Shown piece by piece: positions 1-1,483 of a DNA stretch of 1,483 nt. The stretch's first letter is position 1. Each line of letters starts with the position of its first letter. Source of the DNA: Naegleria gruberi. Its lineage: Eukaryota. The position numbers and the translations under genes were made by a program. The DNA lies in the NCBI GenBank assembly GCA_000004985.1, contig GG739407.1. One strand, written 5' to 3'. The notes beneath the pieces are model-generated. The model saw only the letters and a list, made by a program, of their open reading frames with translations. It searched no databases and was not told the origin of the DNA.

Positions 1-186
1 ATCTGACATGTCTTTGTTGAGGTTCATCTCATTTATGAAAGTTAGAATGACCTGTGAAAGGAAGACGAGGAGAATGGATATTTTGTGTTGTAATAACACA
101 TTTACAGTTACAATCCAGAATTTAAGATCCTTTAGGAGTCGATTAGATCAGCAGCGGAATTAAAGGACGATGAAGATAATTCCCCA

Positions 187-689
187 ATGATGAGAACAAC
201 AGCCTTAGAAGAAGTGAATGATGTTGCTGATGAAGAAAAGGATCAAGAAACCAAAGATGCATCATCTTCCGAAGTGAATATTGTTGAGGAAGAAGAACAA
301 GAACAAGAAATTCAAAAGGAAGAAAAGAAGACGCCACAAAAGGTTACTCCCTTGCCATGGGGTAAATAATTTGTCGTCTTTTTCATCTATTTGTGTGATA
401 GTTTGAGTTATACGTCACTCATGCCATATATTACATTCATGATTTCTGATTTTAATCTGACAGAGAATCCAACAGAGTATGGATATTATGTGGGATTGGT
501 TGCATCTGCATACTTTTTATCTCAGTTCATTAGCTCATTCTTTTGGGGAACTATTTCGGATAGTATTGGAAGAAAACCTGTTTTACTTTTTGGAACTTTC
601 TTTGGTGCAATTTGCGGATTAATGTTTGGGTTTTCTAAATGGTTGTGGTGGGCATGTGGTTGCAGATTTTTGTTTGGTTTATTGAATGG
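187..689 (+). CDS. MFS transporter (ZIF1/ZIFL-like subfamily), exon 1; needs TAA(367-369)=Gln read-through; ends in phase 2
   Basis: ATG-ATG at 187/190 is the first in-frame ATG after the TGA at 55-57. Frame 1 encodes an acidic N-terminal tail (MMRTTALEEVNDVADEEKDQE...EEEEQEQEIQKEEKK), then TPLPWGK-[TAA]-FVVFFIYLCDSLSYTSLMPYITFMISDF (TM1). It continues into TM2 YGYYVGLVASAYFLSQFISSFFWG and MFS motif A GTISDSIGRKPVLLFG, then TM3 TFFGAICGLMFGFS and TM4 WWACGCRFLFGLLNG. From memory, this matches Arabidopsis ZIF1 (...LPISSLYPFLYYMIEDF...FWGIVADRYGRKPIILLG...RFLLGSFNCLLG...). The exon ends at GG|GTATGT. The start codon assignment is less certain than the coding call. Confidence 0.78.
289..309 (+). 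repeat. imperfect 21-nt direct repeat encoding an EEEQ(E/D)QE acidic motif; second copy at 1148-1168
   Basis: GAAGAAGAACAAGAACAAGAA (289-309, frame 1, EEEQEQE in the N-terminal tail) against GAAGAAGAGCAAGATCAAGAG (1148-1168, frame 2, EEEQDQE in the central cytoplasmic loop). 18 of 21 nt are identical, and both copies lie in predicted cytoplasmic segments. Confidence 0.5.
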
Positions 690-756
690 GTATGTTAACT
701 GTTCCACACTTTGAATTTATTGTACTATTTAATGAACTCAATTTCTTGGAAATTAG
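690..756 (+). other. spliceosomal intron 1 (67 nt, GTATGT...AAATTAG), phase 2
   Basis: There is a GTATGT donor at 690-695 and no AG anywhere inside until TAG at 754-756. The intron is about 27% GC against about 37% in the flanking exons, and it contains the in-frame TGA (712-714) that ends track ORF 391..714. Removing it joins GG+T into Gly and gives ...RFLFGLLNG-NLGVVKSYLGEITD... This is collinear with ZIF1 ...RFLLGSFNCLLGTMKAYASEIF... with no gap. Confidence 0.72.
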
Positions 757-1384
757 TAATTTAGGAGTTGTTAAAAGTTATTTGGGAGAAATCACTGATA
801 GTACCAATCAAGCAAGAGCATTCTCATTGACCAGTATTACATTTGGTTTGGCATCTGTACTTGGGCCAGTGTTGGGTGGTCTGTTTTCGAGACCACATCA
901 ACAATATCCCGATTTTATCATACTCTTCCCAGAGTGGATACAAGATTTCGTTATTCGATTCCCTTACGTTTTACCAAGTTTTTTCATTTTCTGCTTTTAC
1001 ATAGTTGCATTCGTGTTGGGTTGTTTGAAATTAGAGGAGGCCAATAAGAATACCTGGTATTATAGAAGGTTTATTGCTAAAGAGATAGTTGATAATATTG
1101 ATAAGGAAACTTCCAAAACCAAATTAATATCATCAAATAATGAACTAGAAGAAGAGCAAGATCAAGAGCCAATTATTGTTAAGAAATCCATGTTACAGAA
1201 ATTCAAGAATAAGTTTAACAACTTCAAAAGTCATGAAATGTTATCATCTCCTATTCCATTGCTGACATGTTTCCTCTACTTGATGTTGGGATCGAAACAA
1301 ATCTTATTTGATGAATGTTTACCTCTCTTTTCATTACACCAAAAGAGTTGGGAGGATTAGGATTATCTTCATATCATCTTGGTT
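757..1384 (+). CDS. MFS transporter exon 2 (TM4 end through TM7 and the start of the TM7-TM8 loop); contains a -1 frame discontinuity at about 1337-1351
   Basis: Frame 2 (track ORF 686..1360) encodes NLGVVKSYLGEITDSTNQARAFSLTSITFGLASVLGPVLGGLFSRP (TM5). It continues with HQQYPDFIILFPEWIQDFVIRFPYVLPSFFIFCFYIVAFVLGCL (TM6), a long basic/acidic central loop (KLEEANKNTWYYRRFIAKEIVDNIDKETSK...ELEEEQDQEPIIVKKSMLQKFKNKFNNFKSHEM), and LSSPIPLLTCFLYLMLGSKQILFDECLPLFSLHQK (TM7). From about 1342 the protein-like continuation is in frame 1: KELGGLGLSSYHLG. This matches the conserved ...SPRKYGGLSYSTNEVG... block of ZIF1-like proteins, whereas frame 2 hits TAG at 1358-1360. The exon is taken to end at the GTAAGT donor at 1385. 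Confidence 0.7.
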
Positions 1385-1458
1385 GTAAGTTTACAATTTT
1401 TGTAATTCTATAGAAATTAACTTTTACTTTCACATTTCAATAATTAACATGCAAATAG
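1385..1458 (+). other. candidate spliceosomal intron 2 (74 nt, GTAAGT...AAATAG); alternative acceptor at 1412-1413 would give a 29-nt intron
   Basis: A strong GTAAGT donor sits at 1385-1390. The following segment is about 20% GC and has TAA/TAG in all three frames (1386, 1403, 1418, 1441, 1445, 1456, 1459...). Using the acceptor AG at 1457-1458 joins T(1384)+TA(1459-60) into Leu and gives ...SSYHLG-LTGGFLGLS..., matching the ZIF1 spacing ...NEVGTVLAISGLGL.... Using the first AG (1412-1413) instead gives ...HLG-Q-INFYFHISIINMQIVTGGFLGL, which is open but less TM-like. Confidence 0.4.
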
Positions 1459-1483
1459 TAACTGGTGGATTTTTAGGATTATC
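1459..1483 (+). CDS. MFS transporter exon 3 (start of TM8), continues beyond the window
   Basis: After the proposed splice the reading is L-T-G-G-F-L-G-L-(S). This Gly-rich hydrophobic stretch is typical of MFS TM8, and there is no stop before the window ends. The call depends on the intron-2 model. Confidence 0.35.

Follow-up and report, generated by a model that had tools for sequence, protein, structure and literature searches.

A missing G upstream of the A4 run breaks the reading frame of a putative ZIF1-like transporter gene on an orphan scaffold of Naegleria gruberi

The break in the reading frame of this Naegleria gruberi gene was traced to one absent G between A1333 and T1334 of the window, which is the complete 1,483-bp unplaced orphan scaffold of the NEG-M assembly that carries XP_002668040.1 / EFC35296.1. 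Comparison with related sequences shows that the break is a non-programmed single-base deletion, private to the window scaffold. The most likely causes are two: an error of sequencing on an orphan scaffold of low coverage that may be chimeric, or a null allele of recent origin. As a feature it is an ordinary deletion of a kind already known and has little biological weight. The main use of the result is in curation: the deposited protein is distorted by an artificial 102-nt intron (362-463) and by a premature end at a frame-2 TAG. All features described below lie on the + strand.

Gene structure and family

The window (33.8% GC) holds part of a spliced, putatively ZIF1-like transporter gene with two introns of about 70 nt. 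Exon 1 (187-689) is in frame 1, begins at the first in-frame ATG and specifies an acidic N-terminal tail followed by the first transmembrane helices. It is colinear with protein P0006 of L001, a metagenome contig (ENA ERZ929261, k127_70186; Illumina) that is 97.1% identical in DNA to window positions 156-1480 and has the same introns, and with homologues from Naegleria and Willaertia. Removal of intron 1 (690-756; GTATGT...TAG, 67 nt, 27% GC), which the deposited model shares, joins LLNG to NLGVVKSYLGEITD and matches all homologous proteins. The frame-2 part of exon 2 (757-1333) covers TM5-6, the central loop and TM7 as far as ...DECLPLFS. The rest of the exon (1334-1384) is in frame 1 and reads (V)TPKELGGLGLSSYHLG, the conserved loop motif that follows TM7. 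Once repaired, this part equals the protein of a second N. gruberi copy, NAEGRDRAFT_75144 (P0009, XP_002669891.1, UniRef100_D2W1A1), located on a 207-kb scaffold of the same assembly.

Intron 2 (1385-1458; GTAAGT...TAG, 74 nt, 20% GC) is in phase 1. Its removal gives SSYHLG/LTGGFLG, identical to NAEGRDRAFT_75144, with the start of exon 3 (1459-1483, LTGGFLG..) in frame 3. Both introns are found at matching places in L001 and in a second relative, L002, and the intron-2 donor GGTT/GTAAGT is common to these two. A previous, sequence-only reading of the window had described what lies downstream of the GGL block (after 1384) as low-quality sequence. This is in fact intron 2, with the gene resuming at 1459; that reading overlooked the spliced eukaryotic structure (introns 690-756 and 1385-1458).

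From its sequence, the gene product is predicted to be a major facilitator superfamily (MFS) transporter. Residues 64-309 of the repaired protein passed the gathering score of Pfam MFS_1 (PF07690) with 87 bits against a cut-off of 33.4 (E = 1.5e-24), and a Sugar_tr Pfam match was also present. The best named match was 'Protein ZINC INDUCED FACILITATOR-LIKE 1' of Rhizoctonia solani (E = 5.4e-60, 32% identity), the name being that of the source. This ZIFL1-annotated protein is the nearest named relative outside the heteroloboseans, and many 'DHA1' matches come after it; the comparison with ZIF1 drawn in the sequence-only reading was thus apt. The gene shares with the ZIF1/ZIFL-type DHA1 MFS transporters of plants and fungi the GGL..S....G loop after TM7, encoded here in frame 1, and differs from them as a heterolobosean homologue with a long acidic N-terminus and central loop. 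Its placing in a ZIF1-like subfamily is putative, drawn from similarity and from source annotation.

Reality and exact site of the frame break

In frame 2 no stop occurs between 757 and the TAG at 1358-1360, and the translation runs up to ...GSKQILFDECLPLFSLHQKSWED before this TAG; the same end can also be written as ...DECLPLFSLHQKSWED. Frame 1 from 1315 encodes ...FITPKELGGLGLSSYHLG. The two translations confirm the one-base discontinuity between frame 2 and frame 1 that had been described: exactly one more base would make the ORF continuous. The similarity of the frame-1 block KELGGLGLSSYHLG reflects real homology. Over the last 74 aligned residues, a stretch that includes the site, the repaired product does not differ at all from XP_002669891.1, and the loop motif also occurs in N. 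lovaniensis, Willaertia magna and metagenome relatives.

The defect had been assigned to the A4 run at 1341-1344. DNA alignments with L001 and L002 place the missing base elsewhere, at 1333^1334, where a GTT Val codon lacks its initial G. At the gap the window reads CTCTTTTCA-TTACACCAAAAGAG and L001 reads CTCTTTTCAGTTACACCAAAAGAG. In the three-way DNA alignment L001 has TCAGTTACA, L002 has GCTGTCCTT and the window has TCA-TTACA. The G is likewise present in the longer stretch of L002 (77% identical), TTTGCTGTCCTTCCTAAAGAT, and is lacking from that of the window, TCATTACACC. With A on one side of the G and T on the other, the gap can be placed in only one way, and the presence of the G in both L001 and L002 makes the deletion private to the window. 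L001, L002 and NAEGRDRAFT_75144 all read LPLFS-V-TPKELGGLGL across the site.

Two points favor an indel in the A4 homopolymer: homopolymers are common sites of indels, and extension to A5 also gives a continuous ORF of the right length, reading ...LFSLHQKELGGL.... The run, however, is of native length, as L001 has the same CCAAAAGAG and keeps both the G and a continuous frame here. The missing G, by contrast with an A4 defect, is not in a homopolymer and lies 8-11 nt upstream of the run, a position fixed by the alignment gap. The A5 repair would also put SLHQ where relatives have [SA][VL][TLM]P, removing a Pro that is conserved in all homologues. A profile scan, in which an N was inserted after each position from 1295 to 1371 and the product was scored against an HMM built from non-gruberi homologues only, peaked at 324-326 bits for insertions at 1330-1338, against 320.4 bits in the A4 run, so that the A5 repair scores about 5 bits lower. 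The alignments and the scan thus refute a defect in the A4 run. Nor is HQKELGGL, the product of the A5 repair, the ancestral peptide, which is SVTPKELGGL; the intact reading in the NAEGRDRAFT_75144 protein is LFSVTPKELGG. Over the longer stretch, the ancestral peptide is LPLFSVTPKELGGLGL, not LPLFSLHQKELGGLGL. The case shows that homopolymer-based guesses at an indel can be several bases off, and that a near-identical relative fixes the site exactly.

Two other local explanations were tried and rejected. A shift in the T4 run at 1328-1331 (T5, giving LFFITPKEL) does not fit: the run is T4 in L001 too, and the base that the alignment shows as missing is the G. The frame would also be restored by a 14-nt mini-intron (GT at 1347 to AG at 1360); this is far below the 67- and 74-nt introns of the gene in length, and would remove the conserved GGLG.

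Frame 2 could also be joined to frame 1 by recoding, whether as programmed -1 ribosomal frameshifting or in some other form, and successive parts of a single protein are indeed encoded in the two frames. The likeness to canonical -1 programmed sites (X_XXY_YYZ plus a pseudoknot or hairpin) is limited to the direction of the shift, from the 0 to the -1 frame. No X_XXY_YYZ heptamer is present in any phase between 1300 and 1350. The downstream fold has an MFE of -17.3 kcal/mol against a shuffle mean of -12.75 (z = -1.64); 11 of 200 shuffles were as stable, which is not significant. The shift itself is not conserved, with L001, L002, NAEGRDRAFT_75144, N. lovaniensis and Willaertia all in a single frame across the site, and the product of a -1 slip would differ by one residue from the conserved peptide. 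Since a slippery heptamer, a significant fold and conservation are all lacking, recoding is hardly credible here, and the low rank that the sequence-only reading had given it was justified.

Relatives and selection

The protein of NAEGRDRAFT_75144 matches that of the repaired window at 130 of 135 residues over their overlap. The two agree fully around the break (LPLFSVTPKELGGLGLSSYHLGLTGGFLG) and share the intron-2 junction. Unlike the window, this copy stays in one frame through the site, and its central loop carries three substitutions of its own (T, P and V) at positions where the window agrees with L001. L001 in turn differs from the window in having the G at 1333^1334, a TTA codon at 367, the ancestral N-terminus and three in-frame indels.

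L001, as assembled, also has a lesion of its own. A private 2-nt deletion at L001 1314-1315 (window 1350-1351) changes TTGGGAGGA to TTGAGGA, in the context of a GGA/GGATTA repeat, and shifts the frame of the same conserved loop 17 nt downstream of the window lesion. Further copies were sought in JGI metagenomes, both by protein and by DNA pattern, and none was found.

Selection was assessed from dN/dS between the window and L001, both repaired, over 380 codons. The two sequences show 13.5 synonymous and 9.5 non-synonymous differences (dS = 0.060, dN = 0.011, dN/dS = 0.18), and the synonymous excess over the neutral expectation is significant (p = 3e-5). Within codons 59-282, all 10 differences are synonymous. 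When polarized with L002, the substitutions private to the window are six synonymous, one non-synonymous and one nonsense; positions 492, 615, 630, 636 and 910 are among the synonymous ones. The dN/dS value and this pattern of private substitutions together indicate that the gene lineage was constrained and functional until essentially the present. On these comparisons the window does not appear to be an old pseudogene. The private synonymous changes further show that the scaffold is an allele or paralogue in its own right and more than a noisy version of the NAEGRDRAFT_75144 locus.

Other anomalies of the scaffold

The in-frame TAA in TM1 (367-369) is a second lesion. It arose by a T368A change, private to the window, from a TTA Leu codon. 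Both L001 and L002 have TTA at this position, and Leu is encoded in all homologues, e.g. PLPWGKLFVVFF and PLPWAKLLVVFF. A ciliate-type code, with TAA and TAG read as Gln, was considered for this codon and rejected: it is the sole in-frame stop in about 380 codons, the organism is Naegleria and the relatives have TTA.

At the other end of the scaffold, the window reads GGATTATC, without one T of the GGATTTATC found in L001; it has TT at 1479-1480 where L001 has TTT. The protein of NAEGRDRAFT_75144 reads GGFLGFIIF here, with a Phe encoded where the window has these two bases. By comparison with L001, this is probably a second single-base deletion private to the window, four bases from the scaffold end.

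The 5' segment (1-155) is unrelated to the ancestral 5' end of the gene and stands in for the ancestral start codon and about 32 codons. No similarity of this segment to the rest of the window, to L001 or to L002 was found by blastn or tblastx. The N-termini of L001 (MVQKNIESVS..) and L002 (MVKKKNSESVS..) are missing from the window, and since they are homologous to each other, it is the window that lacks the ancestral start and the following codons. The segment could come from a chimeric clone or assembly, or from a real rearrangement or truncated duplicate. A stop-free stretch in frame 2 is present in this region (ORF 8-163, 51 aa).

Origin of the missing base

The sequence-only reading had offered a sequencing or assembly indel, or a genuine frameshift, as the source of the one-base deficit. 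This general reading holds. The G is present in L001 and L002, and its codon in the NAEGRDRAFT_75144 protein, N. lovaniensis and Willaertia. Base-calling or assembly error in a low-coverage, possibly chimeric Sanger scaffold is given a probability of about 0.5. The NEG-M assembly is Sanger-based, with 40.9 Mb, 35% GC and 1,977 scaffolds (PMC9928731, Table 1). The scaffold is unplaced and only about as long as two Sanger reads, and its 5' end may be chimeric. Four of its anomalies are private to it (the 155-nt non-homologous 5' end, the T368A nonsense change, the missing G and the missing T), and both single-base deletions fall within the last 150 nt. The same genome encodes another copy whose frame is unbroken at the site and whose 74 residues around the break are identical. 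Error is also favored by the strong constraint on the gene (dN/dS 0.18) and by the frame-preserving nature of the other indels relative to L001. Nevertheless, the missing G is outside any homopolymer, the six private synonymous changes mark a distinct allele or paralogue, and a real null allele of recent date predicts the same dN/dS. Were error the cause, the real gene would be continuous and encode ...DECLPLFSVTPKELGGLGLSSYHLG/LTGGFLGF..., and the deposited model, with TM1 spliced out and its end at the frame-2 TAG, would be an annotation by-product of the errors.

A genuine recent lesion, in which a true allele or young paralogue has just been inactivated by T368A and the 1-nt deletion of G, is a serious possibility, held at a little under even odds. 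It could take the form of a null allele in a heterozygous genome or of a young, possibly 5'-truncated pseudogene. A passage in PMC9928731, citing Fritz-Laylin 2010, reports N. gruberi NEG-M to be heterozygous. Several disabling changes occur in one copy together with a non-homologous 5' end, and the window-private synonymous changes prove a separate sequence lineage. The environmental relative L001 has an independent 2-nt frameshift 17 nt away, which is harder to dismiss as error because L001 is an Illumina assembly product; given this deletion, the gene lineage may tolerate real inactivation. Loss could also be tolerated in view of the near-identical NAEGRDRAFT_75144 in the genome and further paralogues in the genus. 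Against a genuine lesion, dN/dS is 0.18 and the membrane domain has no non-synonymous change. One private non-synonymous change stands beside three disabling lesions, where neutral decay lasting long enough for two or three lesions to build up would be expected to leave several. The window and L001 have no lesion in common, one of the deletions is 4 nt from the scaffold end and resembles read-end noise, and a real locus would be expected within a larger scaffold.

On the suggestion that the frameshift, together with the TAA at 367, makes this a pseudogene, the evidence is divided. Taken at face value, the deposited sequence has disabling lesions (TAA at 367-369, the missing G and the missing T at 1479-1480). 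Selection is not relaxed: a dN/dS of 0.18, as opposed to a value near 1, speaks against old decay, a point that the sequence-only reading had missed, and is compatible only with very recent inactivation.

A broader proposal, namely that the lesions are real and that the transporter is under recurrent, independent inactivation in the N. gruberi lineage, is rather doubtful. NEG-M would then carry a null allele (nonsense change plus 1-nt deletion) and the environmental relative a separate 2-nt deletion 17 nt away, the site being perhaps an indel-prone GGAGGATTAGGATTA repeat. If true, this would be a case of redundant MFS paralogues being lost at present in a heterozygous amoeba.

Deposited gene models

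XP_002668040.1, a predicted partial protein and the top match to the spliced, frame-repaired translation in a protein search, corresponds exactly to 139-361, 464-689 and 757-1357 of the window followed by the stop at 1358-1360. This TAG is an outcome of the shift and serves as the stop codon of the model. The model's additional intron (362-463; 102 nt, GTAAAT...GACAG) sidesteps the TAA and deletes TM1 (GK, stop, FVVFFIYLCDSLSYTSLMPYITFMISDFNLT). The annotated intron is an artefact, because relatives encode this stretch contiguously. The true product is likely a ZIF1-like MFS transporter that reads through the site as ...LPLFSVTPKELGGLGL....

The second copy is also incomplete as modelled. NAEGRDRAFT_75144 has only 307 aa, begins inside TM6 (MVAFVLGCLKLEE) and is without the N-terminal six helices; a gap or a lesion may have cut this model short in its turn. 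It is exactly this region that the orphan scaffold overlaps.

Relative to L001, the window has in-frame indels of 3, 6 and 6 nt at 260-262, 293-298 and 1095-1102, in the acidic N-terminal tail and the central loop. They look like ordinary frame-preserving slippage polymorphism, and, the lesions described above aside, every indel that separates the window from L001 has a length divisible by three.
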